From the IMG/VR virus record IMGVR_UViG_3300006103_000037, positions 1 through 38,281 of that record: 38,281 nt of DNA, one strand, 5' to 3'. The position numbers were made by a program, and so were the translations under genes. Below are positions 5,516 to 34,284 of the stretch, piece by piece. The notes below the pieces were generated by a model. It did no database searches, had not been told where the DNA came from, and was given only the letters and a program-made list of their open reading frames with translations. Origin of the DNA: a virus. Lineage: Duplodnaviria; Caudoviricetes. The first letter of the stretch is position 1, and every line of letters starts with the position of its first letter.

Positions 5516-5935
5516 TTAATTTGCACGTTTGATGCCGCGTGGGTCTTGTACTACGGCCTCTACGGAATCATCATTAATCATACGAAACTCACGGCCATGA
5601 ATAAGTAGGCGTGTACCAGCATTGGGTCTGACCAATACAAAATCACCTTGTTTACACCACGGACCTGAGGGGAAACGCTCTTTATCAGAGTAGCAGTCTG
5701 GACCAAGCGATACTACGAATAGAACTGTTGCCAGCTTTTCTTCGAAGCTCATGGTTTGATCTGCTTTTAGAATGCCGCTTTCAAATTCCTTTTCCACTTC
5801 GGGAATAGCGCACATAATGCGATAACCTGATGGTGTCGGTACTTGTCGGGCTTTTTCATCGTCTGTTGCTTGAAATTTTACTGAACCTACTATTTCTGGA
5901 TTATCGGGGTTTGAGCCGATAAGGATTTCAGTCAT
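5516..5935 (-). CDS. groES: GroES/Cpn10-like co-chaperonin
   Basis: PSGYRIM...ESGIL...VVSLGPD...KQGDFVL...GREFRMINDDSVEAVV matches the Cpn10 pattern. Confidence 0.8.
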   Translation of the reverse strand: MTEILIGSNPDNPEIVGSVKFQATDDEKARQVPTPSGYRIMCAIPEVEKEFESGILKADQTMSFEEKLATVLFVVSLGPDCYSDKERFPSGPWCKQGDFVLVRPNAGTRLLIHGREFRMINDDSVEAVVQDPRGIKRAN

Positions 5936-6116
5936 CTGAGTGCTCCAATTGTTTTGCGAGGTCTTCAATGATTGCACATGCAGCTTCTAGACCTCGAATC
6001 TGTCCACATGTGTACCTATATTCCGCAAAGTCTGTACAGGCGCCACGGGCTAATGCTTTTTGAAGCATCTCCATACGTTCCTTTAGTTCTTTGAGGTAAT
6101 ACTCGTTTAGATCCAT
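5928..6116 (-). CDS. Small conserved protein after the portal
   Basis: 62 aa, DFAEYRYTCGQIRGL; translationally coupled to the portal. Confidence 0.7.
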   Translation of the reverse strand: MDLNEYYLKELKERMEMLQKALARGACTDFAEYRYTCGQIRGLEAACAIIEDLAKQLEHSDD

Positions 6117-11057: not shown

Positions 11058-11417
11058 TTATGATGAGCTAATAATACCAGCTTTTTCTTCGTAATGGTGT
11101 ATTCGGTGGCAGTTAGCGCATAGGACTATGCATTTTTTAATTTCTTCGTATGCTTTTGTGAACTGCTTATTAGAGACTAGTCGATTAACGTTGTACTCTT
11201 TAGTGCTTGGGTCTTCGTGGTGAAAGTCTAGTGCAGCTATATGGTCAAACCCACACTTAGTGCATTTAAGGCCTCGCTTAAACTCTGACCATGTTTCTTT
11301 TTGTTGTGCTTTGCTTGCTTTATTTTTTTGTATTATTTCTTCTTGGTTTTTTAAGTAGTGCTTACGGCTGTATTCCTTGTGTTTCTTTTTTCTTGTACTC
11401 TCGTCTTTGTACGGCAT
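11058..11417 (-). CDS. HNH endonuclease
   Basis: CTKCG...LDFHH...KCIVLCANCHRIHH. Confidence 0.85.
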   Translation of the reverse strand: MPYKDESTRKKKHKEYSRKHYLKNQEEIIQKNKASKAQQKETWSEFKRGLKCTKCGFDHIAALDFHHEDPSTKEYNVNRLVSNKQFTKAYEEIKKCIVLCANCHRIHHYEEKAGIISSS

Positions 11418-11850
11418 CAGGATCTAGCTTTCTTTTCCAATAGCATGCGTTACGGAAGGACCACGGTTTCCCCGGAGTATACATCTTAAACCCGGCGTTG
11501 ATTAAAGAATTTGCACTAGCTGGATTATTTGTCGTGTCTGTAATGCACCACGCCCAGCCTAACTTCTTAGCTTGCGCAAGGCGAACTTTAATCATACGCA
11601 GCTGCAGTCCATGACCTGTAAAGCCATCCATTACACCTGCCCTACATAAGTAACCTGTATCTGTCCATTTGATCGAGCGTACCAGACCCGCAAAACCTAT
11701 GGGCTTCCCACATTCTGCATAAGCTATCCACCAATGCCCACGATCCGGAGTGTACGGTTGGTCTTCCGGCAAAATCTTTCTCTGAAGAAATAGCAACAGA
11801 TTCTGAATTGCTGGGTTTCTTATATCGACTTTTCTTACTGTGAACTTCAT
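11362..11850 (-). CDS. GNAT-family acetyltransferase
   Basis: YLCRAGV...GHGLQ (acetyl-CoA loop) and NNPASANSLINAGF (motif B). Confidence 0.8.
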   Translation of the reverse strand: MKFTVRKVDIRNPAIQNLLLFLQRKILPEDQPYTPDRGHWWIAYAECGKPIGFAGLVRSIKWTDTGYLCRAGVMDGFTGHGLQLRMIKVRLAQAKKLGWAWCITDTTNNPASANSLINAGFKMYTPGKPWSFRNACYWKRKLDPDAVQRREYKKKETQGIQP

Positions 11851-12593: not shown

Positions 12594-12736
12594 GCACTAT
12601 AAAGAGGCATGGGGGTACTTATTGCCGATTTTATTTTTGATATATCTACTGTGCAAAACACTGTGTATGTATTGCAGTAGGTACCATCTAAGCGAATCGG
12701 GTTGGTGGGGGTATGGTGGGGTTGGCTGGCTGGCAT

Positions 12737-12764
12737 GACATTCTGAGCTGGGGCTAAGATAGTC
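12737..12764 (-). repeat. Degenerate reversed copy of the 30-bp element
   Basis: Minus strand reads GACTATCTTAG-CCCCAG-CTCAGAATGTC. Confidence 0.5.
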
Positions 12765-12867
12765 TAAATTAGTTTTGGTTTTCTTGATCTAGGTCAAGAG
12801 TTTATCTCGCATACTCGGTTATATTCAAAGCGTACCAAGTCGGTACATAACTTAGAAAGGATTTACC

Positions 12868-13476
12868 ATGTCATACATTACTACAGAATTAACTAAAGCG
12901 GGCTTTATCTCTATTGGCTCAGCATGTGCTGACATTGATGGACAACGGGATGAAGCCTTGCTATCGTTTTATCATGCTGTGCTGGTTGATGGCGATATCA
13001 GCTATGACGCTTGGACTGAGGGCTCTACTTGCTGGAAGGTTGGGTATGCTCAGGCTAAGCGTTGTGCTCCTGAGGATAATAAGGTATCAGTAGCGTGGCA
13101 CAGTTTTACTAGCGATCTCAAGACTCAATACGATATCGTTAAGCCAGTTAAGCCATCCAAAGCAGGTCAAGTCAAGGCTGAGCAAAGAGGCAAAGCGGCT
13201 GTGGAAATGGAAATGCTCAAGGCTAAGCCAATCGAAGAGTTGGTTGAAGAGGTTGCAATGCTTACCCAAAACCCTAGTCTTGAGAATATCAAAAAAGCCA
13301 CAAAAGTACAGAAGGCTGTAGAGGCTAAGCGAAAAGAAGCCATGAAGGATCGCATGGACGGTATCAGCGAATTACAGAAGGTAGTTATTAGTTTAACCAA
13401 AGAATGCCTAGATGAGATGACGCTAGAGCATTGTAGAGCTATCCTCAATGGCGAGGTTGATATCTCCATAATGTAG
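12868..13476 (+). CDS. Hypothetical early protein, paralog 1
   Basis: GAAAGGA RBS and its own terminators; similar to 14331..14930. Confidence 0.85.
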   Translation: MSYITTELTKAGFISIGSACADIDGQRDEALLSFYHAVLVDGDISYDAWTEGSTCWKVGYAQAKRCAPEDNKVSVAWHSFTSDLKTQYDIVKPVKPSKAGQVKAEQRGKAAVEMEMLKAKPIEELVEEVAMLTQNPSLENIKKATKVQKAVEAKRKEAMKDRMDGISELQKVVISLTKECLDEMTLEHCRAILNGEVDISIM

Positions 13477-13480
13477 TAAG

Positions 13481-13534
13481 AGCTGGGGGCAACCCCAGCT
13501 TGTTTTATCCAGCCCAGCTTAGGCTGGGTTTTTT
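13481..13534 (+). terminator. Tandem hairpins / intrinsic terminator
   Basis: AGCTGGGG-GCAA-CCCCAGCT, then AGCCCAGC-TTAG-GCTGGGTT with a T run. Confidence 0.8.
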
Positions 13535-13618
13535 ATTTTATTAGGGAACTGGTTGTAAGCGACGCATTAGCCATGTTCGCCATGCGAACGCAGTCGGCAT
13601 CACACGCAAAGCGAACTC

Positions 13619-13649
13619 GGACATTATTAGGTGTTGGCTAAGTTTGTCC
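13619..13649 (-). repeat. 30-bp element, reversed copy (7-nt spacer)
   Basis: Minus strand reads GGACAAACTTAG-CCAACAC-CTAATAATGTCC. Confidence 0.85.
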
Positions 13650-13658
13650 TCGCAATGC

Positions 13659-13993
13659 AATGTTCCGTTTTATTCGCTTTGTTCTAAGCAATGTTCCTGC
13701 TAAGTTATTGATTTATAAGTAATGTTCGCAATGTTCTAATGTTACACTCGAAAATCTACTTCCAGTTTTCCAAAAATTTCGTTCGCTTGATCCGTCTCGC
13801 ATAGTGCAAGAAATAGATTTTTTAAGCTCGATATATAAATAAAATAACATTATAACATTATAACAATATACTAATAAATGACCTTCTAACCTAATAAGTA
13901 TAAGGGTTTTGTAATGTTCCAACGAAGCGAACAAATCGGAACAATTAGTCGGTTTTTCGAACATTCCTAGTTTGGTATTTCTTAGCGAACAAA
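13659..13993. other. Candidate replication origin (iteron-like AATGTTC/GAACA repeats, AT-rich core, IHF site)
   Basis: AATGTT(C) at 13659, 13690, 13721, 13730, 13738 and 13913; ATAACA(T/A)T three times at 13844-13867; exact WATCAANNNNTTR on the minus strand at 13701-13713. Confidence 0.5.
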
Positions 13994-14130
13994 GCATCAC
14001 CACGCATACCCGCTAAATATCGTGATCTAAACAGAGAATATTCCATACCATAAAACCTCGCCCAATACGCTAGAGTTCCTTTTACTCCATCAATAGTAAT
14101 GTAAACAAAATCTGCTTTTTTCTTTTTCAT
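13945..14130 (-). CDS. Small putative DNA-binding protein
   Basis: AAGGAG RBS; ITIDG...TLAYWARFYGM...RSRY..G resembles the HTH-like tails of phage HNH proteins. Confidence 0.65.
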   Translation of the reverse strand: MKKKKADFVYITIDGVKGTLAYWARFYGMEYSLFRSRYLAGMRGDALFAKKYQTRNVRKTD

Positions 14131-14190
14131 GTGTAAATCTCCTTAAAACCCTATTATAGAACAATACCTAAAACATTGTAGGACAAACAC

Positions 14191-14219
14191 TTGACATTGT
14201 AATGATTCTCTGTTATACT
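14191..14219 (+). promoter_or_regulatory. Strong sigma70 promoter
   Basis: TTGACA-17 bp-TATACT with extended -10 TG. Confidence 0.85.
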
Positions 14220-14261
14220 ACAAGGGTAGTAAAGATTAAAAGGCAGTAAGCAGTAAAAAGC

Positions 14262-14291
14262 GGACAAACTTAGGTAGTGCTAAGAATGTCC
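14262..14291 (+). repeat. 30-bp imperfect inverted repeat element
   Basis: GGACAAACTTAG-GTAGTG-CTAAGAATGTCC. Confidence 0.95.
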
Positions 14292-14330
14292 AGTAAACCA
14301 AACCAAACTTAAGAGGATTTAAAACACACT

Positions 14331-14930
14331 ATGAAAACTACCATTAAAACCCAAGAAATGCTCTATGCATTTGACGAGCAACAAACTGCATCAATCAAGG
14401 CATCTGCCGTAAACTTCTTTGAATCTGAAGAATCTGCCGAGCAAGCCGTTTTGACCTATCAACGCATCATCGGTTTAAACCCGACTTTTGATCAATACGA
14501 AATGGGTCGTTTGTTGTTTATCGAAGCAATCTCTGAAGCAAAGCCCGACATCACCGACAATGCATTAAATGTGCGTTGGAATACCTTTAGCAAAAAATTA
14601 GGTATTGATAAGCCTAAAAAGACAGAATCGGCAGATGCAGTTCGCAAAGCGAACGAGAGAGCATTGGCAAAAGAGAAACAACAGGCAGAATTTGCGGGCA
14701 TGACTATTGACGAGCTAAAGCACGAAGCCAAAAACTTGTTATCTAATCCTACTTTGAAGAACATCGAGCAAGCCAAGAAATATACCAAGCAAGCCGAGAT
14801 GCTCTATAAAGAAGCGAACAAGGAAGAAGCCGAGCAAAAGGCGCAGTTGGTTAAAGACCTGACCGCATGGGCAAAAGATCAGTCATACCTAGACTTATAT
14901 ACAATCTGCGAGAACATGGGCATAATCTAA
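14331..14930 (+). CDS. Hypothetical early protein, paralog 2
   Basis: Own promoter and terminator; LLSNPTLKNIEQAKK aligns with LTQNPSLENIKKATK of paralog 1. Confidence 0.85.
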   Translation: MKTTIKTQEMLYAFDEQQTASIKASAVNFFESEESAEQAVLTYQRIIGLNPTFDQYEMGRLLFIEAISEAKPDITDNALNVRWNTFSKKLGIDKPKKTESADAVRKANERALAKEKQQAEFAGMTIDELKHEAKNLLSNPTLKNIEQAKKYTKQAEMLYKEANKEEAEQKAQLVKDLTAWAKDQSYLDLYTICENMGII

Positions 14931-14950
14931 ACCAAACCCGCTTCACTCTG

Positions 14951-14974
14951 ACCCCGCTATATGCGGGGTTTTTT
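14951..14974 (+). terminator. Intrinsic terminator
   Basis: ACCCCGC-TATAT-GCGGGGT followed by a T run. Confidence 0.85.
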
Positions 14975-15103
14975 ATTATGTAGGATTTGTTTAGGTGTGC
15001 TATGTCGTTCCTATACAACAGAGAACTGGCGGGACAAGCGTGCGACGCAAAAGGAACGAGCCACAAAACGCAATCAAATCAACGCCTTAGGAAGGACAAC
15101 CCC

Positions 15104-15132
15104 TTGACAAAGTAAAGACTTTATGGTATACT
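15104..15132 (+). promoter_or_regulatory. Strong sigma70 promoter
   Basis: TTGACA-17 bp-TATACT with extended -10 TG. Confidence 0.85.
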
Positions 15133-15163
15133 AGAAGGGTAAGTAGAAATTCAAACTCAATCA

Positions 15164-15193
15164 GGACAAACTTAGCAACACCTAAGAATGTCC
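15164..15193 (+). repeat. 30-bp element
   Basis: GGACAAACTTAG-CAACAC-CTAAGAATGTCC. Confidence 0.95.
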
Positions 15194-15212
15194 ACAGCAA
15201 AAGGATATAAAC

Positions 15213-15470
15213 ATGAAGCGACTAGCAAGCCATGAATCACACCGCTATTTCTGCGTAGCTAATATTGCCAAAGACTGCGACACCTATGTTGATGGCGAGC
15301 GTGCAGACATTCTAAACAACCAACACCGACCACTAACTTGCTTAAAGTGTGGCGATGTCATTGCCAAAAGCAAGAAGCACATCGTGCAGATACCCTATTC
15401 CAAAGGTGCGTATCAATATATCCACAACCCGCAAGACTTATTCTTTACTAACCCAAAGAGGACAACATGA
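15213..15470 (+). CDS. Hypothetical Cys-containing (possible Zn-binding) protein
   Basis: AAGGA RBS; YFC...DC...CLKCG...PYSKGAYQYI. Confidence 0.75.
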   Translation: MKRLASHESHRYFCVANIAKDCDTYVDGERADILNNQHRPLTCLKCGDVIAKSKKHIVQIPYSKGAYQYIHNPQDLFFTNPKRTT

Positions 15471-15610
15471 GCAACCCATATATCTATAACCCAACCAAAA
15501 AGCTAGTGCCTTGGACACCGAGAACCCAAGAGCAGTATCTCGACTTTGTTAAACGAGTGTATGCAATGCACAAGCGACTTGGGTTTGAACCACCGAAGAG
15601 GACAACATGA
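15467..15610 (+). CDS. 47-aa hypothetical protein (not in the ORF track)
   Basis: GAGG RBS and ATGA overlaps at both ends; MSNPYIYNPTKK...PPKRTT*. Confidence 0.65.
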   Translation: MSNPYIYNPTKKLVPWTPRTQEQYLDFVKRVYAMHKRLGFEPPKRTT

Positions 15611-15834
15611 GCGTAATGATTGAAGCGAACAACAACTGGCGCAAGTTTATAGACCAGCTAGAAGCGAACAACCCTGATGTGTATAAAAACATATGGCTAA
15701 AAGCACCCGCAAGCGACCCAAAAGTAATAAGCGAGGACTACCATGCGTGGCGCAACCTAGTTCAACAAGCGTTTTTTGAGGGGTATGAAGCGGGTTTTAC
15801 TGACAGATTATTTAAAGGAGATAGAGATGAGTAA
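15607..15834 (+). CDS. Hypothetical protein
   Basis: RBS, coupled to neighbours; AFFEGYEAGF motif. Confidence 0.7.
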   Translation: MSVMIEANNNWRKFIDQLEANNPDVYKNIWLKAPASDPKVISEDYHAWRNLVQQAFFEGYEAGFTDRLFKGDRDE

Positions 15835-16039
15835 GACAAACTTAGCAGAACCTAAGAATGTCCAAGAAAACGACAGAGGACAATGGTTTGACGATGGACT
15901 AACTAAAGCATTTAGATATGCTGAGAGTAACAAAGTAGTAAAGATAGACCGCAAAGGGGTTGCATGTGACGCATATCTTGATGGGTTTTTAGAAGGCATT
16001 GCTTACTATATTTTAGAAAGGAGACAGAACGATGAGTGA
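15827..16039 (+). CDS. Hypothetical protein whose first codons contain the 30-bp element
   Basis: AAGGAG RBS before the ATG at 15827 (MSKTNLAEPKNVQE); AYLDGFLEG motif. Confidence 0.65.
   Translation: MSKTNLAEPKNVQENDRGQWFDDGLTKAFRYAESNKVVKIDRKGVACDAYLDGFLEGIAYYILERRQNDE
15834..15863 (+). repeat. 30-bp element (inside coding sequence)
   Basis: AGACAAACTTAG-CAGAAC-CTAAGAATGTCC. Confidence 0.9.
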
Positions 16040-16205
16040 TGTAAATAGCAGAGCAGACGAAGCATGGAGAAAAATTAACCACCGCTACGACAAATACAGT
16101 AGTGATGAATTCTTTGTGCTTTATGAATTGTTTGTGGAAGCATTTGGGCTTGGCGAAGAAAGCGTATTAAGTATTTGGGAAAGGGCGGGTGGAAAAGTTG
16201 ACTGA
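16032..16205 (+). CDS. 57-aa hypothetical protein (not in the ORF track)
   Basis: AAGGAG RBS; MSDVNSRADEAWRKINHRY... Confidence 0.65.
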   Translation: MSDVNSRADEAWRKINHRYDKYSSDEFFVLYELFVEAFGLGEESVLSIWERAGGKVD

Positions 16206-16404
16206 ATATTACAAAGGGCAACGCATTAGCGAGTTGCTTGAGCACATAGAAGAAATGGAAGGGCGACTCAAGACTTTGGTGCAAATAGCAACTGAGCACC
16301 CCGATGAACCCTTTTCTTTAGCGCAGTATGAAGAAGTAGCACAGGGCTATACATCGCTTGCCCTAGCAAAAGCGAAGTTTAAAGCATTACAAGGAGAGAA
16401 GTGA
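16189..16404 (+). CDS. Hypothetical protein
   Basis: Fits the chain of coupled early genes; start uncertain. Confidence 0.6.
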   Translation: MEKLTEYYKGQRISELLEHIEEMEGRLKTLVQIATEHPDEPFSLAQYEEVAQGYTSLALAKAKFKALQGEK

Positions 16405-16622
16405 TGAACATGATGCACGATTTACACCAAGACTTGTCGGAGTTTATTCCCGATGAGCGTGACCAAGCGACCCTGTTAGAAATCTTTTGGGGTTTGAACG
16501 ACAAGCATGGCGATGCCGACAGTCGTAAAAAAATTGCTATGCAAATCGTCGACCTACGCAATATCTATGGCGACTTGCTTGACGATGCGGTTGAGGTTCT
16601 CTACCAGTATAAGAACAAATGA
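16401..16622 (+). CDS. Hypothetical protein
   Basis: AAGGAG RBS; coupled to neighbours. Confidence 0.7.
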   Translation: MMNMMHDLHQDLSEFIPDERDQATLLEIFWGLNDKHGDADSRKKIAMQIVDLRNIYGDLLDDAVEVLYQYKNK

Positions 16623-16780
16623 CACCAAGCGAACGAAGCGAACTACAAACCCTAATTGACAACTTATCACTCATTAACATAGAAAGGACACCCGCATCAC
16701 TCGTAAGACTAATAGCATTGCAAGCAAGAGATGTATTAGAGAAGTTAATAAGAGAATCGGACAGACTTAGCAAGCCCTAA
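16619..16780 (+). CDS. 53-aa hypothetical protein (not in the ORF track)
   Basis: ATGA overlap; MTPSERSELQTLIDNL...; the stop lies inside a 30-bp element. Confidence 0.5.
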   Translation: MTPSERSELQTLIDNLSLINIERTPASLVRLIALQARDVLEKLIRESDRLSKP

Positions 16781-16788
16781 GAATGTCC
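16759..16788 (+). repeat. 30-bp element
   Basis: GGACAGACTTAG-CAAGCC-CTAAGAATGTCC. Confidence 0.9.
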
Positions 16789-16812
16789 ACAAACCAACGA
16801 AAGGAAGTAAAT

Positions 16813-17091
16813 ATGTATTGGAATAATAGAGTAGTAAGAACCCTATCTCGTTACGAGCATGAGGGACAAGCAGTAGCAGAGCCTTACTTTGAAATCAGCG
16901 AGGTTTTCTACAACGACAAGGGTCAGCCATGTGGCTACACCTCGACAAGTATTGGCGGGGAAACACCTGAGGAAATGCGTGAGGTATACGAGAGAATGGC
17001 GGAAGCATTTGAGCACCCTGTTCTCGATGCTGAGACTGACTTTAATAATAAGTTTGAAGAAGATGAGGAGGATGGACATGAATTCGCTTGA
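16813..17091 (+). CDS. Conserved hypothetical phage protein
   Basis: AAGGA RBS; MYWNNRVV...ISEVFYNDKG.P...MAEAFEHPVL. Confidence 0.75.
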   Translation: MYWNNRVVRTLSRYEHEGQAVAEPYFEISEVFYNDKGQPCGYTSTSIGGETPEEMREVYERMAEAFEHPVLDAETDFNNKFEEDEEDGHEFA

Positions 17092-17287
17092 GAAAAACTT
17101 AAGACCTGTCCCCCGCACATTGGATGAGGCAACACGCAACGCAACATATGCATCATCTATTCAGGCATTTAAGAGCGACACACAAGAAGCGTGGGAGTTC
17201 TTGCTCGGTGCAGTTTATGGGTTCATCATGGTCGGTTGGGCATTTATTGCAATCGGCTTAGTTCTTTACTATTTCTTTGGAGGTTAA
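17078..17287 (+). CDS. Small membrane protein
   Basis: GAGGAGG RBS; PRTLDEA...YAS followed by a C-terminal hydrophobic helix. Confidence 0.7.
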   Translation: MNSLEKNLRPVPRTLDEATRNATYASSIQAFKSDTQEAWEFLLGAVYGFIMVGWAFIAIGLVLYYFFGG

Positions 17288-17288
17288 T

Positions 17289-18245
17289 ATGGGTTGGGGT
17301 TATGGAAATTGCGGTAGATTAAAACCACTATCTACTTATCAGCAAGCACAGGAACACTTTAACTGGGTGACTCCTATTCGTGGTCGTAGCAAAGAAACTA
17401 AACCATTGGGTTTAAACCGACGCTATACGCACTATCTTATCAAAGAGAATATGCGAGTGGTTGACGATGGTTGTCTAGGTGCGTGGCAGAAGACTTACTC
17501 TGCTAATCTGTATAACACGGATATGGTTGAGTGGTATCCCAATGGCGATATTGCGATAGGAACTGGTGGTTGGCAGTCGCCGACGAGTCACGCATTTATA
17601 AATTACACCATCCAAGATTTGGGGTTCATCGAATCGTGGAGTGGCAAGTGGTATTTCACTAATAAGGAACAGAAAAGGTTTTTACTCAAGGGTAAGACTA
17701 AAGATAGGCTCGTGTTAGTTAATACTGGTCGCCAAGTCCAAACCTATGCTAGAGGAATGTGTGATGTATATGAGCCAGCTCATCCAATACAAGAGCATAA
17801 ATACTCAGCGAACAGAAAAGAAATGAATCATCTAAAAAAATACTACGCACCATTTGTTGAGTATGGCAAGAATATGCTACTCATCGACAATAAGTTTGAC
17901 TACAACGAGGAAGAGAATAAGAGAGTCTTTAACAAGTGGGCAAGTCCACACATGATTTCGTATGGGTATCACAGAGAGGAAGCCAAGCGAAATAGGAATT
18001 TCTTTATGACTAAGGTTGGTGAATTTATTGATGAGGGCAGTATGAACTTAGAACTAGCCTATAACTTAGCATTACTTTGTGCGAAGTCTATATCGGGCTG
18101 GGGACAGCGTTGTATGCCCCAAGAGTTTGAGGCGCATTTCATCGAGTTAATAAGGAATCACCATAATAAAGAAGTATTTAGAGCAACTCCTATGCCAATA
18201 GGTGAAGCATTTACTGACCGCAACGCAAAGTATTTTTTAGTTTAA
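17289..18245 (+). CDS. Hypothetical protein
   Basis: GGAGG RBS; about 318 aa, aromatic-rich. Confidence 0.8.
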   Translation: MGWGYGNCGRLKPLSTYQQAQEHFNWVTPIRGRSKETKPLGLNRRYTHYLIKENMRVVDDGCLGAWQKTYSANLYNTDMVEWYPNGDIAIGTGGWQSPTSHAFINYTIQDLGFIESWSGKWYFTNKEQKRFLLKGKTKDRLVLVNTGRQVQTYARGMCDVYEPAHPIQEHKYSANRKEMNHLKKYYAPFVEYGKNMLLIDNKFDYNEEENKRVFNKWASPHMISYGYHREEAKRNRNFFMTKVGEFIDEGSMNLELAYNLALLCAKSISGWGQRCMPQEFEAHFIELIRNHHNKEVFRATPMPIGEAFTDRNAKYFLV

Positions 18246-18261
18246 TAGTAGTTAACCCAAC

Positions 18262-18291
18262 GGACAAACTTAGCAAGACCTAAGAATGTCC
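18262..18291 (+). repeat. 30-bp element
   Basis: GGACAAACTTAG-CAAGAC-CTAAGAATGTCC. Confidence 0.95.
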
Positions 18292-18313
18292 ACAACAACG
18301 GAAGGAAGTAACC

Positions 18314-19408
18314 ATGTCTGAAGTATTTTTGAATAAAGTAGCAACTCTAGTAGAAGCAGAGAACCTTATCCTCTCTATTGGTGCTAACGGAACAGTTCAC
18401 TTAGTTGGTGAGCCAGGTGTAGGCAAGACCTCAATGTTTAAGAACATCGTGCGTCGCACAGGCTTCAAAGGTATCTATATTGATGCACCGAACATCGAAC
18501 TAGGCGAATTAGGTATTCCAATCCCTGACCATGCTACTAAGACAACGCGTATCTATCCCAACGAGCAATGGGGATTTCATGTTAATGAGCCAAAGGTAAT
18601 CTTCATCGACGAGTTCACTAAAGCACACAACGCAGTTAAGAATATGCTTCATCCTATGCTTAACGAACCACGAATGATTATGGGTATCCCATTGCACGAG
18701 AAAGATATTGTCGTAACGGCAGGTAATTACTCAGGCGACGGGGTAGGCGATAACATGATGGCTCACTCTCGTAATCGTGTGACTGTCGTGCAAGTTAAGA
18801 AACCTCATGCGGGTTTGAATCCTGATGGCTCTATTGATCCTGATTCTTGGGGTGCATGGGCGGTGGATAATGACATTGCTCCTGAGGTTCTAGCATGGGT
18901 TAAGGAAACTCCTCATTGCTTGGCTTCATATCTCGATGGCGCACAGGCGGGGAATAAGTATATCTTTAACCCTAAGGAAGCACAGAAGTCTTTTGTTTCT
19001 CCTCGCTCTCTTGCTAGAGCATCAGCAATTCTTAAGGCACGCTTAGGAGTAACTACCAACGCAACTATTTGTGCGCTAGAGGGAACGATTGGTGCTCCTG
19101 CGGCTCGGGATTTGATGTCTTATGTGGAAGTCGCCGACTCGCTACCAACTTGGGCTGATATTCTTAAGAGTCCACAGACTGCGATTGTGCCTAACTCACC
19201 CGCCGCATTGTGCTTGCTAGCTTTCTCTGCGGTGCAAAAGGTTGATAGGGAATCTATTAGTAAGTTCTTTGAATACCTCAAGCGAACTCCAAAGGAATTG
19301 CAATCGGTGTTCTGCTTAACAGGCATGAAGAACGACGACAAGAAAAAATTGTTCTTAACAAGCCAATCATTCACGACATGGATGCGTGAGAACCAATACC
19401 TATTCTAA
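18314..19408 (+). CDS. MoxR-type AAA+ ATPase
   Basis: Walker A GEPGVGKT, Walker B IFIDE, TAGN, SPRS; linked to a VWA gene. Confidence 0.88.
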   Translation: MSEVFLNKVATLVEAENLILSIGANGTVHLVGEPGVGKTSMFKNIVRRTGFKGIYIDAPNIELGELGIPIPDHATKTTRIYPNEQWGFHVNEPKVIFIDEFTKAHNAVKNMLHPMLNEPRMIMGIPLHEKDIVVTAGNYSGDGVGDNMMAHSRNRVTVVQVKKPHAGLNPDGSIDPDSWGAWAVDNDIAPEVLAWVKETPHCLASYLDGAQAGNKYIFNPKEAQKSFVSPRSLARASAILKARLGVTTNATICALEGTIGAPAARDLMSYVEVADSLPTWADILKSPQTAIVPNSPAALCLLAFSAVQKVDRESISKFFEYLKRTPKELQSVFCLTGMKNDDKKKLFLTSQSFTTWMRENQYLF

Positions 19409-19417
19409 GGAGATAGC

Positions 19418-19531
19418 ATGGAAGATTTACCGAAAGACATAAGGGAGTTGGTGTTGTATGCATTGCAAGATGTAATGAACCGACTACATAGAATTGAAGA
19501 AATGCTTTGTGATAACGAGGAAGAAGAATGA
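19418..19531 (+). CDS. 37-aa hypothetical protein (not in the ORF track)
   Basis: AAGGAG RBS; MEDLPKDIRELVLYALQDV... Confidence 0.55.
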   Translation: MEDLPKDIRELVLYALQDVMNRLHRIEEMLCDNEEEE

Positions 19532-19734
19532 AAGAAATTGTAGATGCAATGCGTGAGCATAGTCGTATCAAAGCCGAAGCGAAAAGGAATAACCTTGAAC
19601 TGATGAAGTTAGCGGTGCAGACAGGGTTGCCTCAAGAAGAGGCTTTGAAAATAAATCTGTCTATGTATTTAGATGGTTACTTAATGGCATTAGGGCATAT
19701 GCCCGCACACAGAAGAGGAGTTGTAAATGATTGA
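19528..19734 (+). CDS. Hypothetical protein
   Basis: Coupled ORF. Confidence 0.65.
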   Translation: MKEIVDAMREHSRIKAEAKRNNLELMKLAVQTGLPQEEALKINLSMYLDGYLMALGHMPAHRRGVVND

Positions 19735-19924
19735 GATTACCTACGCAGATTTGTTCCTATTCGTTGTTATTGTGTTGGTGTCAACTCTCTGGTTGAAGGC
19801 AAAGGCAGAGATGGTCATGCAAAAACGAGCCATGATGCAAGGGTTGTATGCCTTGTATCATGGTGAGGCTGAAGTAATCGTTGATGAAGAAGAAGGTTCA
19901 ATCCGTTTACAGGAGAAAGTATGA
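19727..19924 (+). CDS. Small membrane protein
   Basis: GAGGAG RBS; N-terminal hydrophobic helix. Confidence 0.7.
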   Translation: MIEITYADLFLFVVIVLVSTLWLKAKAEMVMQKRAMMQGLYALYHGEAEVIVDEEEGSIRLQEKV

Positions 19925-21111
19925 GTAAGTTAACAGCAGAACAGCGCATCGAACGCACCCATGTTCAGCTAATGAAGCACCCCAATTTTTGTTTGTTCTC
20001 GGGGTTGTTCATGGTGGGCAAGGTGTCGGTAGATGATGAGTGTCCTAGTGCTAAGACCAATGGGGTTGATGTAACCTATGGTCGTGGGTTCGTGGATAGT
20101 TTGAGCGACAAGGCTTTGGCTTTCGTTATATTGCACGAGAATATGCACAAGGCTTATCGTCACTTGGTGGTATGGACAAACTTGCACAAGAAGAACGCAC
20201 AGTTAGCTAATGCGGCTTGTGACTATGTTATCAATCTACAAATCCGTGACTATGACCCTGATGGTCGTGATACTGAGATGCCTGTCGACGCCGACGGCAA
20301 TGTGATGGGACTTATCGACGAGAAGTATCGTGGTATGGATGCGGCTCAAGTCTTTAGATTGCTAGAGGAAGAGCATGGCGGTGGCGGTGGTGGCGGTGGT
20401 CAAGGTATAGATGACCATGACTGGGAAGGCGCACAGGAAGCAACACCTGAGGAACAAGAAGCGATTACTAACGAGATCGAGCGAGCATTGCGACAAGGCG
20501 GTATCTTGGCGGGCAAGATGGGTGGTAAGGTTTCTAAAGAAATGCAAGACCTCTTAACTCCTAAGGTTGACTGGCGAGAAGCCTTGCGTGATTTCGTTAA
20601 GACTTCTACTCAGGGTAAAGACCAAACGACTTGGCGTCGGTTGCATAAACGCTATATCGGTTGCGACATCATCATGCCATCATCTTATGATGAGAAGGTT
20701 GGCGGTATCTTAATTGGTATCGACACCTCAGGTTCTATTGGTGGGGAGGAACTGGCGGGGTTCTTGGGTGAGGTCAAATCCATTTGTGATGAAGTTGCGC
20801 CTGAGAAAATTGACTTACTTTATTGGGACACCCATGTGGCATCTCACGAAGTATGGCAAGGCAACGACCTAGCTGGTCTTACAGAATCAACTAAACCAGC
20901 GGGCGGTGGCGGAACAGAGCCAGCTTGTGTGCCTAAGTATATGAAGAAAGAAGCATTAGACCCTGAGTGTGTCATCATGCTAACTGATGGATACATCGGA
21001 ACGCAGAACCCAAACGATTGGGAGATAGGCAAGCCTATTCTATGGTGCATCAAAGGTAACGAGCGCTTTAATAGTTCTCAAGTATCAGGAAAGGTGGTTC
21101 ATGTGGAATGA
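19921..21111 (+). CDS. HExxH metallopeptidase-like plus VWA domain protein (DUF2201-type)
   Basis: LHENMH, NAACDYVIN, MIDAS DTSGS, GGGGT, LTDGY. Confidence 0.88.
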   Translation: MSKLTAEQRIERTHVQLMKHPNFCLFSGLFMVGKVSVDDECPSAKTNGVDVTYGRGFVDSLSDKALAFVILHENMHKAYRHLVVWTNLHKKNAQLANAACDYVINLQIRDYDPDGRDTEMPVDADGNVMGLIDEKYRGMDAAQVFRLLEEEHGGGGGGGGQGIDDHDWEGAQEATPEEQEAITNEIERALRQGGILAGKMGGKVSKEMQDLLTPKVDWREALRDFVKTSTQGKDQTTWRRLHKRYIGCDIIMPSSYDEKVGGILIGIDTSGSIGGEELAGFLGEVKSICDEVAPEKIDLLYWDTHVASHEVWQGNDLAGLTESTKPAGGGGTEPACVPKYMKKEALDPECVIMLTDGYIGTQNPNDWEIGKPILWCIKGNERFNSSQVSGKVVHVE

Positions 21112-21388
21112 TAAAAAACCGTGGTGGCAGAAACCTAAAGGCGACCCTAAAAAGGTAGTCGATAGGCAGTATGCCAAGAATTGGTGCGTGTTTGTGCAAA
21201 AGCTTGGTGTATATGACCCTAACAGTTGGGGTATGAAAGTAATGATTCATTACACAGCTTGCGCCAAACTCAATGTGCCTAGATTTCTGCATCAAACACA
21301 GGAAGAAGTAGTGGTAGTAGATAACTTAACTAAGCAAGAGGCAAACGAAGTAGCCAAAGGCTTAAACTTTTTAGATGGACAAACTTAG
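21101..21388 (+). CDS. Hypothetical protein
   Basis: Overlaps the VWA stop and ends inside a 30-bp element. Confidence 0.6.
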   Translation: MWNDKKPWWQKPKGDPKKVVDRQYAKNWCVFVQKLGVYDPNSWGMKVMIHYTACAKLNVPRFLHQTQEEVVVVDNLTKQEANEVAKGLNFLDGQT

Positions 21389-21406
21389 GTAGAACTAAGA
21401 ATGTCC
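21377..21406 (+). repeat. 30-bp element
   Basis: GGACAAACTTAG-GTAGAA-CTAAGAATGTCC. Confidence 0.95.
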
Positions 21407-21424
21407 TTAACGATAGGAATGATT

Positions 21425-22327
21425 ATGAACCAAGAAAATAGTATTTCCATTGCATCTTCTGCAATGTTGGTAGAACTTAGCATTAGTGGTTGGAGTGCTA
21501 GGAAGTTAGACAAGCGTGCCTCGGCTCAAGTAGATATCACCAACTCTACCAAGACCAAAGCGGGTAACTATAACAAGAACCTATTAGCTGGCACAGGGTT
21601 CTTGGATACCATAACGAAGTATGCGGCACAGGCTCGTGCATGGCATCTAAGTCAGACATTGCCTTGGTCGGATAACGGCTTGCGTCTATTACCTATGGGT
21701 AGGTTTCTAGAGTATAAGGAGCAACTCAACACTCTGGAGGCAAACTACATGGCGCTAGTGGATAAGTTCGTCGTAGCGTATCCGAATCTGGTAAGTGCCG
21801 CCGCATTTCAGTTAGGTGATTTGTTTGACCGAAGCGAATATCCCGAGGTCGAGAAGATCCCAGCGAAATTCAAATTCTCGGTTAACTACTTGCCTGTCCC
21901 GATGGCTGGAGATTTCAGAGTAGACATTGGTGAGGAAGCGAAAGCCGAACTTGTTAAGTCATGTGAAGATGCTTACAACGAGCGACTAGGTAATGCTATG
22001 AAAGATGCATGGGATAGATTACATGGTTGCTTGACCCGTATGTCTGACCGCTTGGCTGATGAAGTAGTGGAGAAAGAAGTAGATGGACAGATTGTTCAAG
22101 TGTCTCAACGAAAACGAATCCACGACACAGTAATAGAGCATGGTGTCGAGTTAGTAGAACTCCTGAAACACTTTAACCTCACAGGCGACGCTAGCATGGA
22201 GATGGCACGCAAGGACCTCGAGAGAGCAATCGGTGGTCACAATGCCGACGACCTCAAAGACAGCGAGGCTATTCGCATGGGTGTTAAGAGCAAGGTCGAT
22301 GCAATTCTCAGTAAGTTTTCTTTTTAA
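21425..22327 (+). CDS. Conserved helical phage protein (tentatively DUF3150-like)
   Basis: SAMLVELSISGWSARKLD...TLPWSDNGLRLLP...FDRSEYP; the RBS favours a start at 21425. Confidence 0.7.
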   Translation: MNQENSISIASSAMLVELSISGWSARKLDKRASAQVDITNSTKTKAGNYNKNLLAGTGFLDTITKYAAQARAWHLSQTLPWSDNGLRLLPMGRFLEYKEQLNTLEANYMALVDKFVVAYPNLVSAAAFQLGDLFDRSEYPEVEKIPAKFKFSVNYLPVPMAGDFRVDIGEEAKAELVKSCEDAYNERLGNAMKDAWDRLHGCLTRMSDRLADEVVEKEVDGQIVQVSQRKRIHDTVIEHGVELVELLKHFNLTGDASMEMARKDLERAIGGHNADDLKDSEAIRMGVKSKVDAILSKFSF

Positions 22328-22336
22328 GGAGGAAGT

Positions 22337-22537
22337 ATGCGAAGTTATAAAGCACGCAATAGGACTAAGTTAATAGCGGAGGCGAACAAGAACTCGCTAA
22401 CCGCATTGCTTAAACAAGACATTCCTATCGAAGAGAAATATGCAATGGTGGAGGAGCGCAACCCATTCCTTCATGCATTATTTATTAAGAAAGTTAAAGT
22501 TGTTATTAAAGGAGAAGAAGATGATTGTGGTAAATAG
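22337..22537 (+). CDS. Hypothetical protein
   Basis: AAGGAGG RBS. Confidence 0.65.
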   Translation: MRSYKARNRTKLIAEANKNSLTALLKQDIPIEEKYAMVEERNPFLHALFIKKVKVVIKGEEDDCGK

Positions 22538-23390
22538 AGACAAATTGAAGGCTGAGTATCGTTCCGACATTAAATACCTTGACGGATTGGAAAGTTTCTT
22601 AACCGATGTAGCATTAGCCAAGCCATTGCTAACTTATGATGTCGACGATATGTGTATCTCTAATGAGCGAACTAAGGATGCTAACGGCGACTTAAAGATA
22701 GAGAAGCAACTATATCGCATTAGAGTTTATGGTGCGGGGGAATACCTCGGGGATATTGGCATCATCGACAGATGGCGTGGTGGTAGCAAAGAAAGGGCTT
22801 ACCTAGTCGAGTGTTTTCGCATCAGCAAAGGGCGTGGCCGGCAGAATGGAACTACAACGATTGACCCGAAGACTGCGTTGCGTGAGGCTAAGAAAGCATT
22901 TAACCCAAGACAAGACGACGAGTTAAAGACTCTTATCAAGAGCATGGTTAAGAATCAGGTTAACACTATGCTGGATCAGGCTCGTAGTTATTTGCGTTGG
23001 AACTTTGAGCAAGATGCTGAACTATGCCACTATGCCGTCGTAGCTTTTAACGCTAGGAAAAATGGTGACTTGTTTGCCAAGATGCCTGTACATCCAGTAA
23101 CTGTTAAAGATACTAAAGAACACGATAAGCGTTGTGAAAAGTTTATAAATAGCCAAGAACTTTTTGATGCTATAAACGCTAATCGAGGGTATGGCATTAG
23201 AACTAATATGGATAACACTCTAGTTGTATATAGCTACGCTACCGACACCGTTGGTAAGGTTAATTCGTTTGACGATTTGCCTGAGGCTATTCAGTCTAAG
23301 TTTGCTATGTTTAAGGTATTAGAGGCGAATGATCCTGTGGGTAGCATTGGGGTTAAACTAGCTGATAACTTTTATTATGTAATGCAATGA
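22521..23390 (+). CDS. Hypothetical protein
   Basis: AAGGAG RBS before the ATG at 22521 (MIVVNRDK). Confidence 0.8.
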   Translation: MIVVNRDKLKAEYRSDIKYLDGLESFLTDVALAKPLLTYDVDDMCISNERTKDANGDLKIEKQLYRIRVYGAGEYLGDIGIIDRWRGGSKERAYLVECFRISKGRGRQNGTTTIDPKTALREAKKAFNPRQDDELKTLIKSMVKNQVNTMLDQARSYLRWNFEQDAELCHYAVVAFNARKNGDLFAKMPVHPVTVKDTKEHDKRCEKFINSQELFDAINANRGYGIRTNMDNTLVVYSYATDTVGKVNSFDDLPEAIQSKFAMFKVLEANDPVGSIGVKLADNFYYVMQ

Positions 23391-23400
23391 GGTATACTAT

Positions 23401-23570
23401 GGTCAGGTTGACTTCATAGTTAATCCTTTCGTGAGGGTGGTTGGAATGTATGGCAGATGCAAACCAACTGGGATTACCTGATTAACATACTAGGATGTAA
23501 TCTGCCTTACCTAGCGAATATGTATCCATATTCATCCTCCAAAACTAAGCCACCTTCGGGTGGCTTTTTT
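23401..23570 (+). ncRNA. Candidate structured small RNA (about 170 nt)
   Basis: TATACT at 23393-23398, several complementary segments, an anti-SD/anti-start stretch, and a terminal terminator. Confidence 0.5.
23547..23570 (+). terminator. Intrinsic terminator
   Basis: AAGCCACC-TTCG-GGTGGCTT followed by a T run. Confidence 0.9.
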
Positions 23571-23573
23571 ATT

Positions 23574-23603
23574 GGACAAACTTAGGTAGTGCTAAGAATG
23601 TCC
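23574..23603 (+). repeat. 30-bp element (identical to 14262)
   Basis: GGACAAACTTAG-GTAGTG-CTAAGAATGTCC. Confidence 0.95.
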
Positions 23604-23628
23604 TTAGGGAAACCCCCTATAAATTAAT

Positions 23629-23657
23629 TTGCTATGTTATTTTTGGTGTGGTATACT
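23629..23657 (+). promoter_or_regulatory. Sigma70 promoter for the replication operon
   Basis: TTGCTA-17 bp-TATACT with extended -10 TG. Confidence 0.7.
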
Positions 23658-23694
23658 ATGTCAATAATAATAGTTTCACCGAAAGATAAAACCA

Positions 23695-24012
23695 ATGGCA
23701 ACCCCTGAGTCTAAAGTAAAAGACGCAGTAGTTAAGATACTTAAAAAGCATAGTATCTACTACTTTTTTCCAGCTACGCATGGCTATGGTCGCTCGGGCG
23801 TGCCTGATATTATAGCGTGCTTTCGTGGGCAGTTCGTAGCTATCGAATGTAAGGCTGGAAACAACAAGCCGACTGCATTACAACAACGAGAACTCAAAAA
23901 TATTATGACTGCTGGCGGTCATGCCTTTGTAGCGAACGAAGAAAACATTAGCTTTTTTGAATCTTATTTTAATCGGTTTGACTTTGGTTTTGATGACGAT
24001 GACCGATGCTGA
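23695..24012 (+). CDS. VRR-NUC nuclease (Holliday junction resolvase-like)
   Basis: TPESKVK...GVPDIIAC...AIECKAG...PTALQ. Confidence 0.88.
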   Translation: MATPESKVKDAVVKILKKHSIYYFFPATHGYGRSGVPDIIACFRGQFVAIECKAGNNKPTALQQRELKNIMTAGGHAFVANEENISFFESYFNRFDFGFDDDDRC

Positions 24013-24042
24013 TATCCCACCAGTTACAAGAAAGGAAACGAC

Positions 24043-24546
24043 ATGAATGACGGCGTAGCTATGCTAATTGAAAGAATGAAAACAAACCCTGAGGAGTTTA
24101 CGGAAGGGAAATGGAACGCTTTAATACAATCCCACAAAATGTTTTTAAACCCCGAAGACTGCAAAGCCCTTGATGATGGCGTCAATACACTAATGCAACA
24201 ACGCTTTACCGAGAAGGTTATGGAGGAACTTGTTGACCCAAAGTCGAAGGACGGAGTGACACTAAACAACATAAGTCATCCGAACGCTACGATTGGGGCT
24301 ATACGGACCCAGCCACTCTCTTTAAATACTAATGCAGTAACAGGAACTATAAGCAACGGTGGAAGCTGGGGTCATAATATGCTAATAAACAAACTTTTCA
24401 TGGAATTTTATGAAGCTAGATCCGCAAGTTCTATTAGTCTAGAGCATGATGAGCATATGAAAGCCCATATAGAAGCACTAAAGAGAGAAGTAGAAAAGCA
24501 GAAAGAACATAAGACTTTATTCGGAAAGCTATTTAATTACCTATGA
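24043..24546 (+). CDS. Hypothetical protein
   Basis: GAAAGGA RBS; LIERMKTNPEEF. Confidence 0.75.
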   Translation: MNDGVAMLIERMKTNPEEFTEGKWNALIQSHKMFLNPEDCKALDDGVNTLMQQRFTEKVMEELVDPKSKDGVTLNNISHPNATIGAIRTQPLSLNTNAVTGTISNGGSWGHNMLINKLFMEFYEARSASSISLEHDEHMKAHIEALKREVEKQKEHKTLFGKLFNYL

Positions 24547-26375
24547 ATATCATCACGATAGACTTTGAAACATATTACAGTCGGGACTTTAGCTTAACGA
24601 AGTCAACGACTGAGGAGTATGTTCGTTCGGATTTGTTTGAAGTAATAGGCGTATCAGTAAAGGAGAACGATAATGACGCTACATGGTTTAGCGGTAGTCA
24701 CGATGAGGTGGCTGAGTTTTTGCGTGGCTTTGACTGGGCTAATTCTTTTGCTCTTGCCCATAATGCTATGTTTGACGGTGCTATTCTCACTTGGCGGTTT
24801 GATATTAAACCGATGGCTTGGCTTGACACACTTGCAATGGCTCGTGCAACAGACGGTCTTGAAGTTGGAAACTCTCTCGCTAAGTTGGTGGAGCGATACT
24901 CTTTGGGGAGAAAAGGCACAGAAGTTCTTGACGCCCTCGGTAAACGACGTGCAGATTTTAGCAAGCAGGAACTTCACGCTTATGCTGGGTATTGCAAGAA
25001 TGACGTGGAATTAACCTATAAGCTGTTTATGATTCTTGTACAACGCTTTTCTAAATCGGAACTACAACTCATTAGCCTCACGATTAAGATGTTTTCTGAA
25101 CCAACACTTCAGTTAAATACCCCATTGTTAGAGCAACACCTAATGCAAGTGCAGACCAAGAAGGAGAAGCTATTAGAGGCATGCTTAGCTAATAAAGAAA
25201 CACTCATGTCTAACATTAAGCTAGCCGAACTACTTATTACTATGGGTGTAGAACCACCTATGAAAGAAAGTCCGACAACTGGAAAGGTCACCTATGCGTT
25301 TGCCAAAACAGATGAAGAATTCAAAGCCCTTGCAGAACACCCCGACCTCAGAGTCCAAGCGATTGTTGCCGCAAGACTCGGTACTAAGTCGACTCTTGAA
25401 GAAACTCGAACCCAGCGATTTATTAATATCTCGCTTAGAGGTTCTATGCCTGTACCTCTTCGTTATTATGCTGCTCATACGGGGCGTTGGGGCGGTGATG
25501 ACAAGCTTAACCTCCAAAACTTACCTCGTAAGTCTAGCCTCAAAGATTCTATTTCTGCCCCTAAAGGATTTGTTTTAATTGACGCCGACTCCTCACAGAT
25601 TGAGGCTCGTACTGTAGCATGGCTATCAGGACAAAACGATTTAGTCGATGCGTTTGAAAGGAAAGAAGATGTATACAAGATCATGGCGTCTGCTATCTAC
25701 GGCAAGGCGGAAACAGAAATCGACTCGGGCGAAAGGTTCGTGGGGAAGACGACAATCCTTGGTGCGGGTTATGGTATGGGAAGTACTAAATTTGGAATCC
25801 AACTCAAGACTTTTGGCGTGGAAATTGCGGATGAGGAGGCGGCACGCATCATTGCGGTCTATCGACAAACCTATCCCCATATCCCTAGACTTTGGAAAGA
25901 AGCTAATAATTCCTTGGATGCCATCAGACAGGGCAAGACTACGTCGGTTGGTCACCAGCCACAGGCATTATCGGTCACGGCATCAGGTTTCTTATTACCA
26001 TCAGGACTATATCTAAACTACCCTGACTTACAAGAGGGCGATGACGGCTATACATATAAGAGTCGTCGTGGTCGCATTAAGATTTATGGCGGTAAGGTAG
26101 TAGAGAATATCTGTCAGGCTGTGGCTCGTTGCATTATCGGGGAGCAGATGCTTAGGATAGCGAAGAAATACAGAGTAGCATTGACCGTACATGATGCGGT
26201 GATGGCAGTTGTGAAAGAAGAGGAACAAGAGGAGGCTATGCGCTACATAGATGAGTGCTTGAAGTGGCGGCCGGAGTGGGCGAAAACCCTTCCTCTTACT
26301 TGTGAATTGGGTGTAGGTAAAAGCTATGGTGATTGTGGTATTAAGAAACCTATCGAACAATGGGGGTTGAAATGA
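24543..26375 (+). CDS. polA: Family A DNA polymerase with 3'-5' exonuclease
   Basis: Exonuclease IDFET and HNAMFD; TGRW...NLQNLP; motif A DSSQIEAR; motif B RFVGKTTILGAGYG; motif C VHDA. Confidence 0.93.
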   Translation: MNIITIDFETYYSRDFSLTKSTTEEYVRSDLFEVIGVSVKENDNDATWFSGSHDEVAEFLRGFDWANSFALAHNAMFDGAILTWRFDIKPMAWLDTLAMARATDGLEVGNSLAKLVERYSLGRKGTEVLDALGKRRADFSKQELHAYAGYCKNDVELTYKLFMILVQRFSKSELQLISLTIKMFSEPTLQLNTPLLEQHLMQVQTKKEKLLEACLANKETLMSNIKLAELLITMGVEPPMKESPTTGKVTYAFAKTDEEFKALAEHPDLRVQAIVAARLGTKSTLEETRTQRFINISLRGSMPVPLRYYAAHTGRWGGDDKLNLQNLPRKSSLKDSISAPKGFVLIDADSSQIEARTVAWLSGQNDLVDAFERKEDVYKIMASAIYGKAETEIDSGERFVGKTTILGAGYGMGSTKFGIQLKTFGVEIADEEAARIIAVYRQTYPHIPRLWKEANNSLDAIRQGKTTSVGHQPQALSVTASGFLLPSGLYLNYPDLQEGDDGYTYKSRRGRIKIYGGKVVENICQAVARCIIGEQMLRIAKKYRVALTVHDAVMAVVKEEEQEEAMRYIDECLKWRPEWAKTLPLTCELGVGKSYGDCGIKKPIEQWGLK

Positions 26376-34060: not shown

Positions 34061-34284
34061 GTCTAAGAGGCTATAGCTACCTCCTTGTAAAAGCCAATAA
34101 AGCTGCTGACACTAAAAGTATTGGAGTCAAGCTGGGTAGGTATTGCATTGCTAATGACATTGAAGTTGCACGAGTTGCTGCAGTATTAGGCGTAAGTCGT
34201 ATGACGGTGTATCAATGGTTTACTGGCAAGGCAACCCCTCACAAGGATAAAGTAGACAGAATACAAGAGCTATTAAGTAAATAG
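34057..34284 (+). CDS. Cro-like HTH protein
   Basis: VAAVLGVSRMTVYQWFTG. Confidence 0.85.
   Translation: MSLRGYSYLLVKANKAADTKSIGVKLGRYCIANDIEVARVAAVLGVSRMTVYQWFTGKATPHKDKVDRIQELLSK

Follow-up and report, generated by a model that had tools for sequence, protein, structure and literature searches.

The Cluster A stoperators (L5 gp71 type) are 13-bp asymmetric sites that lie mostly in one orientation and number more than 20 genome-wide, and the Cluster A repressor of these temperate phages is a monomer with a helix-turn-helix (HTH) and a second domain (PMC6550527, PMC9283540). The ESAS of Cluster K phages have 17-bp arms, a variable spacer and a promoter contained within them (PMC3203893, PMC11373665, PMC4351075), and the PeSL cassettes of T4-type phages are promoter and terminator units that yield mini-circles (PMC2839356). 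Repeats and palindromes are also found in the first-step-transfer region of T5, where early proteins are proposed to control DNA entry (bioRxiv 10.1101/866236), and SroF of SPbeta-like phages is a monomer built of integrase core-binding and catalytic domains (bioRxiv 10.1101/2025.11.27.690993). Here we describe a dispersed 30-bp near-palindrome in the early region of the IMG/VR virus record IMGVR_UViG_3300006103_000037. The whole stretch analysed, positions 1 to 38,281 of that record, is called the window, and its 38 kb belong to a genome of ~60-68 kb. Comparison of sequences across relatives suggests that the element is probably a DNA operator for the first early protein, which is predicted to bind it as a dimer, and we lean towards the view that this dimer damps transcription of the early block through the operator array.

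As far as the cited accounts describe these systems, the array appears to work most like the Cluster A stoperator network, but it fails to match it in symmetry, orientation and distribution. Both have many intergenic sites per phage, some of them at promoters, with a block of both initiation and elongation proposed, and in both the distance between site motifs correlates with the distance between proteins across relatives (here rho 0.64, vs 0.11 for an ATPase encoded in the same block). Unlike the stoperators, the element is a 26-bp two-fold site plus spacer in a 13-N(2-5)-13 inverted arrangement, occurs in either orientation (36 vs 12, with 2 unclassed, n=50) and is present in 9-11 copies in the early block only; the candidate protein is a predicted dimer with no HTH match, and no integrase was found. 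Like ESAS, which vary between subclusters, and the 17-bp palindrome of Cluster O, the copies are imperfect inverted repeats that lie at promoters or before start codons and are conserved by gene. The regulator of those repeats is unknown in the accounts cited, whereas a candidate protein is identified here; sequences and hosts are unrelated, and in contrast to ESAS the site here follows the promoter while a separate box precedes the -35. The array shares with PeSL a regulatory repeat among non-essential early genes that is able to exchange between copies, but the element is neither promoter nor terminator and no element-to-element junction was seen. Compared by description, the T5 first-step-transfer region is likewise a ~10 kb first-expressed block with repeats, although the T5 repeats are clustered at the injection stop signal and those described here are spread before genes. 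SroF is a phage repressor whose fold is unexpected and not of the CI type and whose box measures 26 bp, features that the candidate protein may share, but the latter has ~200 amino acids and no integrase fold match. A multi-site operator with a co-evolving regulator is a known kind of system, and its reader here is likely a new protein family. Neither the element nor the protein family is described in the literature searched, most subscription papers and bioRxiv supplements lying outside that search.

A pattern search of the window returned seven matches on the plus strand with 0-1 mismatches each, compared with 0 in 100 dinucleotide shuffles, and their starts (14262, 15164, 15834, 16759, 18262, 21377 and 23574) are exactly those given in the first-pass annotation. 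A looser scan also recovered the two reversed copies listed there, one at 13619-13649, which has a single mismatch and a spacer of 7 nt, and a degenerate one with five mismatches that starts at 12736 (12736-12765). The latter is considered a real copy because the equivalent position is occupied in the related loci L002, L010 and L017. A matrix scan of the whole window found the same nine copies, spanning 12736-23603, and no further copy. Each half-site consists of an outer box of 5 bp, a linker of 3 bp (mostly A/T) and an inner box of 5 bp, and the spacers differ among copies inside one genome.

The degenerate copy lies ~100 nt upstream of the first early gene (paralog 1), and the reversed copy at 13619..13649 (minus strand) lies downstream of the terminator of that gene and has the opposite orientation in L002. 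The copy at 14262..14291 (+) starts at about +36 from a predicted transcription start upstream of a second paralog, and the copy at 15164..15193 (+) starts at about +25 and is flipped in L002, L009 and L041. The copy at 15834..15863 (+) lies inside the beginning of a small open reading frame (ORF) and has no counterpart in L002, and the copy at 16759..16788 (+) lies at a gene junction and overlaps a stop codon. Three copies had earlier been placed in coding sequence; this holds for 15834, which is well inside its ORF, but the copies at 16759 and 21377 only overlap stop codons. The copy at 18262..18291 (+) begins 52 nt upstream of the gene for a MoxR-like ATPase, a position that is kept in 46 of 46 related loci. 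The two remaining copies are found upstream of a DUF3150-like gene (21377..21406, +; flipped in L009 and L014) and immediately behind a terminator (23574..23603, +; flipped in L009 and L033).

The window comes from a tailed freshwater phage with terminase, portal and capsid genes on the minus strand and PolA, helicase and primase genes on the plus strand. A DNA search of 50,697 phage records gave no match to the window, the closest ATPase relatives among these records are <30% identical, and no cultured model was found. Five IMG/VR contigs contain the exact element, one of them being in essence the genome of the window itself, as do further contigs from metagenomes. Loci with a related ATPase were compared as a clade: 52 were collected and 46 were used, four being dropped with the gene start cut off and two with only 34% identity. 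All 46 have a lineage-specific near-palindrome of 28-31 bp that starts 50-71 nt before the ATPase start and is repeated 3-11 times per fetched stretch. Its clade-wide plan is 5-3-5, a centre of 2-5 nt, and 5-3-5 again (13-bp halves). In five near-complete relatives, two of which were scanned to base 60,000 of 60,346 and 60,723, all 49 copies are likewise in the early block, within 9-10 kb. The window element is one lineage's version of a clade-wide system at common early positions.

The first early gene (paralog 1, 12868..13476, +) encodes 202 amino acids, and paralog 2 (14331..14930, +) encodes 199. The family comprises ~500 clusters at 50% identity and is present once or twice in 36 of the 46 loci, the other 10 extending <4.4 kb upstream of the ATPase. 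Co-variation between element and protein was determined for 30 non-redundant genomes (ATPase <97% identical, at least 4 copies, family present). The distance between elements correlates with that between first early proteins (rho 0.64 for the first paralog and 0.53 for the last), and the partial rho of the first early protein on the ATPase is 0.64 (p 0.001). The other genes gave rho values of 0.11 (ATPase) and 0.07-0.30 (seven further genes); as genome pairs are not independent, this contrast between genes weighs more than the p values. Simple linkage does not account for the correlation, because copies 4-11 kb from the first early gene keep a rho of 0.63-0.67. Additionally, for the single copy beside the ATPase, rho is 0.64 with the first gene, which lies far from it, and 0.11 with the ATPase itself. 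Four candidates for binding tests had been named in the first-pass annotation, and the two paralogs emerge as the best of them. The Cro-like HTH gene at 34057-34284 does not co-vary with the element (rho 0.03, n=20; in the same 13 genomes 0.13 vs 0.73 for the first early protein), and the ORF at 13945..14130 has a homolog in just 4 of 50 related loci.

At the level of single residues, Arg79 in a helix of paralog 1 (residues 71-85) co-occurs with a C at half-site position 12: both are present in 20 genomes and neither in 9, with one exception. Three of the four changes on the tree are concordant, and the second paralogs follow the Arg-C association in 14 of 14 two-gene genomes. A copy of the element is located just upstream of, or within, the first early gene. 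In L094, L095, L097 and L098 the first copy lies within the coding sequence of the candidate regulator itself.

The layout of the early promoters also points to binding of DNA. Two strong sigma70-type promoter-like sites in the window, each scoring 11/12, are found at 14191..14219 (+), with an extended -10, and at 15104..15132 (+), and the lineage-specific outer box GGACA stands 10 bp upstream of the -35 hexamer of both (14181..14185 and 15094..15098, +). Across the clade, the lineage's own outer box is exactly 10 bp upstream of the -35 at 38 of 42 element-followed promoters vs 2 of 27 other promoter-like sites, against a background of 1.6%. The box at promoters fits the lineage's own outer box better than GGACA in 11 of 13 non-GGACA lineages (p 1e-4). 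Strong promoter-like sites number 69, of which 53 have a copy within 150 nt, and the start of this copy falls at +20 to +49 in 37 cases. The interval from -50 to +19 contains no copy start, two copies begin at -51 and thereby overlap a putative -35, and those that follow early promoters start anywhere from +24 to +50. The matching box at promoters, together with the co-variation of the first early protein, supports the earlier proposal of an operator for a phage protein.

The early block of the window is closed by an intrinsic-terminator-like hairpin with a U tract (23547..23573, +). A terminator stands directly before 24 of 238 copies, and in 20 genomes this copy is the last one. Downstream of the last copy in the window is a promoter-like site for the replication genes (23629..23657, +), which has a weaker -35, whereas the early promoters have an extended -10 and are near consensus. 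Read by eye, ~45 to >60 nt separate the last copy from the -10 hexamer that follows it, with no fixed spacing. A reversed TTGACA-like word (TGTCAA) follows the -10 of the replication-gene promoter at 23652-23665 and is kept there in most lineages, whatever the element type.

Models of both paralogs are all-helical, with predicted local distance difference test (pLDDT) values of 89 and 93. The homodimer model of paralog 2 scored 0.71 vs 0.01 for the best control, with at least 92% of contacts agreeing between runs and pLDDT at least 75; of 30 solved homodimers 20 attained the score mark used, as did 1 of 23 single chains. The dimer model supports pairing of the first early protein as a homodimer. 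Neither paralog was given a family name by Pfam or PHROGs, and the ESM Atlas returned hypothetical viral clusters only (0.89), with an integrase row at a TM (template modelling) score of 0.36, under the threshold. Fold searches with the full and N-terminal models gave best Z scores of 6.8 and 5.7, both to generic helical bundles, and did not confirm a resemblance by eye to Myb/HTH or integrase core-binding helices.

In the proposed scheme, the strong early promoters would fire first through the host polymerase, so that the first early protein is made. As it accumulates, the protein would occupy the box 10 bp upstream of the -35 together with the palindromes, both those starting at +24 to +50 and those at gene junctions. 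Once bound, it would block initiation or elongation across the early block, its own genes included. Repression is favored because the promoters are already near consensus, because the copies sit just past the polymerase footprint with no fixed spacing, and because a copy precedes or lies within the protein's own gene. The same repressor may silence a superinfecting phage that shares the site, which would explain the fast diversification of both site and protein.

Several observations weigh against this reading. A box abutting the -35 is also the position of class II activators, and we infer the sign of the regulation. The co-variation is strong for the outer box (0.82) and weak for the inner box (0.31, similar to the 0.30 of TerS). 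The genes tested are those common to most relatives, so a small variable gene could still co-vary; the signal of w17277 was weaker at 0.30. The Arg-C link was chosen post hoc among many columns and rests on three independent events, the out-of-sample loci L164 and L165 have the Arg in just one of two paralogs, and contacts with the partner chain in the dimer model involve the residue matching Arg79 (contact positions 82, 85 and 86 in paralog 2). Additionally, the protein has no DNA-binding family or fold match in Pfam, PDB sequences or the fold lists (a fold may be present without appearing in the fold lists), and both window paralogs are slightly acidic with an isoelectric point of 5.3-5.4.

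The orientation of the element is not fixed by position. Close relatives share 8 sites, and at 4 of them (the counterparts of 13619, 15164, 21377 and 23574) the element is flipped without a change of place, while the order and direction of the flanking genes are unchanged; a polarity around an origin-like segment, as suggested before, is not supported by these orthologous copies. At the 13619 site, L002 carries on its left arm a private base change that L032 carries on its right, an indication that the copy was physically inverted. Some spacers, too, seem to be reversed independently of the arms. Among 50 rows from the window lineage, which include five truncated repeats of one same copy, 36 have AA/AA on the coding strand, 12 have TT/TT and 2 are of another type. 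None is symmetric at these positions, so the fixed AA/AA asymmetry proposed earlier is found in this lineage; it does not extend clade-wide, as most copies in L072 and L116 are symmetric, and the A-A loop is therefore a trait of the lineage rather than the essence of the element. Linkers within one copy match less often than in within-genome shuffles (34 vs 69.5 +/- 4.9; 238 copies, 30 genomes).

Template switching yields spacer inversion and arm homogenisation (PMC8604942), and of these two signatures spacer inversion alone is seen here. Inversion or conversion may therefore act on a whole copy at once, or there may be selection against perfect palindromes, which would fold ~6-7 kcal/mol more stably than the copies. 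Identical centres are enriched within genomes (57 of 773 pairs vs 29.6 +/- 5.8 expected), which is consistent with conversion between copies or with a lineage preference. The flips probably stem from template switching or from conversion between copies, and would be tolerated because the site is two-fold symmetric. A heterodimer of the two paralogs is unnecessary as a cause of the AA/AA asymmetry, since the single-gene loci L084, L090, L095 and L107 are also asymmetric and symmetric copies occur in two-gene lineages.

The same protein and sites could instead activate or assist transcription, with the protein bound next to the -35, the downstream palindromes as loading or read-through sites and the last copy activating the replication-gene promoter. 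The fixed position of the box upstream of the -35 and the place of the last copy between a terminator and a promoter with a weaker -35 are compatible with this, but the early promoters already approach the consensus and have an extended -10, and neither the last copy nor the copies at +24 to +50 keep a fixed geometry; a fixed activator geometry was looked for at the last copy, with distances read by eye, and not seen. We regard activation as unlikely. A role in staged DNA entry is put slightly lower. Here the first 11 kb, as far as the terminator, would be drawn into the cell by the host polymerase, while bound dimers would hold, ratchet or protect the DNA until anti-restriction functions are made. 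This draws on the loss of restriction-site-like words over the marked block (GCWGC 0 vs 21.6 expected, ACGT 0 vs 20.2), with comparable word loss in 5 of 5 near-complete relatives, and on the last copy lying right behind the terminator in 20 genomes. Over 12736-24900 of the window the depleted words are GCWGC, ACGT, GTAC and AGCT, with partly different words in G001-G005; they were picked as the most depleted in the block, which inflates the per-word p values. The depletion ends 0-2 kb past the last copy and, in the window and several relatives, extends 1-2 kb beyond it, and the promoter box points to transcription. It also counts against entry that avoidance of restriction sites in first-entering early genes, as in T7-type early regions, would be expected even if the array played no part. 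In a bolder form, which we hold to be similarly doubtful, the new-fold dimer of this integrase-less phage would be a lineage-specific switch between self and non-self as well as a DNA-entry gate. It is no more probable that the dimer coats a restriction-site-free first 11 kb while the terminator-plus-site boundary holds the rest until the cell is disarmed.

The flips bear on two further explanations, both of which had been raised in the first-pass annotation. RNA hairpins with a 2x2 A-A internal loop that serve processing or antitermination, in the manner of RNase III or nut sites, and are recognised by the first early protein would fit the folding of the copies at -9.6 to -11.4 kcal/mol and the presence of many copies in leaders, just after promoters and 10-39 nt before start codons. 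Orthologous copies are however flipped relative to transcription, so that AA/AA becomes UU/UU, the mismatch is not always at the same position and in some lineages pairing is complete, the outer box also stands upstream of the predicted transcription start, and the last copy lies behind the terminator. The proposed covariation check of an RNA stem vs a DNA site gave no G·U bias (apposed coding-strand pairs G·U 93 vs A·C 99, p 0.72), and Rfam gave no match at element copies at the gathering score, so an RNA element is quite improbable. Sites of a site-specific recombinase (12-6-12, tyrosine-recombinase-like) or of an HUH enzyme, which would invert or excise modules, would explain copies inverted in place and the recurrence of identical centres, but the flanking genes remain colinear and co-oriented, spacers differ between the copies of one genome, and the clade spacer is 2-5 nt. 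PF00589, PF00239 and PF01797, the last covering Y1 HUH enzymes of the REP/RAYT and IS200/IS605 type, were found in 0 of 5 near-complete relatives (96-100% completeness), and no tyrosine recombinase is among the 60 window ORFs; these searches cover phage-encoded proteins, host XerC/D not being tested. Contigs from 4 of the 24 runs listed gave 9 joints, none of which was an element-to-element deletion, a weak negative given that contigs drop rare variants. Recombination is very improbable. The least probable explanation is a set of host-regulator sites whose lineage differences follow the hosts. The scan for such sites covered GTDB as a whole, where the exact pattern gave only two single matches in 185,579 genomes, each a perfect palindrome and in unrelated taxa, and element distance follows a phage gene better than it follows the remainder of the genome. 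A host repeat or a genome-wide scatter, either of which had been named as grounds for setting the element aside, was looked for in GTDB and in the matrix scans and not found.

An operator array read by the first early protein would be a candidate means by which phages that encode neither an RNA polymerase nor a sigma factor keep strong early promoters in check, and the system belongs to a widespread, uncultured freshwater clade. If binding is confirmed, the family, which has neither annotation nor a matching fold, would contain a new DNA-binding domain, and dozens of natural protein-site pairs would form a panel for specificity swaps and orthogonal repressor parts. Kin-specific exclusion, if true, would be repressor-type immunity without an integrase. 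If the switch and entry-gate reading were true, a one-residue, one-base recognition code would be readable across the dozens of natural pairs.

Related arrays were also seen in more distant phages. L164 (1661-3143) and L165 (1784-3269) have two family paralogs on the strand opposite to the early block and carry a related element with an inner TTACA box. L167-L184, which are distant and have a DUF3150-like gene, contain other palindrome arrays with 3-5 copies found per locus, and the first-early-protein family has no match in the fetched stretch, which suggests other readers for the same layout.

Several neighboring features of the window were recorded. AATGTTC repeats (five forward and one inverted) surround an AT-rich tract at 13659-13965; they resemble the outer part of the half-site and by eye are also present in the same interval of relatives. 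The marked block includes a conserved module at 18314-22327 that consists of the MoxR-like AAA ATPase, a DUF2201 metallopeptidase/vWA protein and the DUF3150-like protein. Among the head genes is a GroES-like gene (5516-5977), and a GNAT acetyltransferase gene (11362-11850) precedes the small terminase. The Rfam int-alpA RNA motif RF02996 (34294-34360, 44 bits) is flanked by the genes for the Cro-like HTH protein and the primase, and a 212-amino-acid ORF at 37475-38113 matches the end of much longer DarB-like antirestriction profiles.

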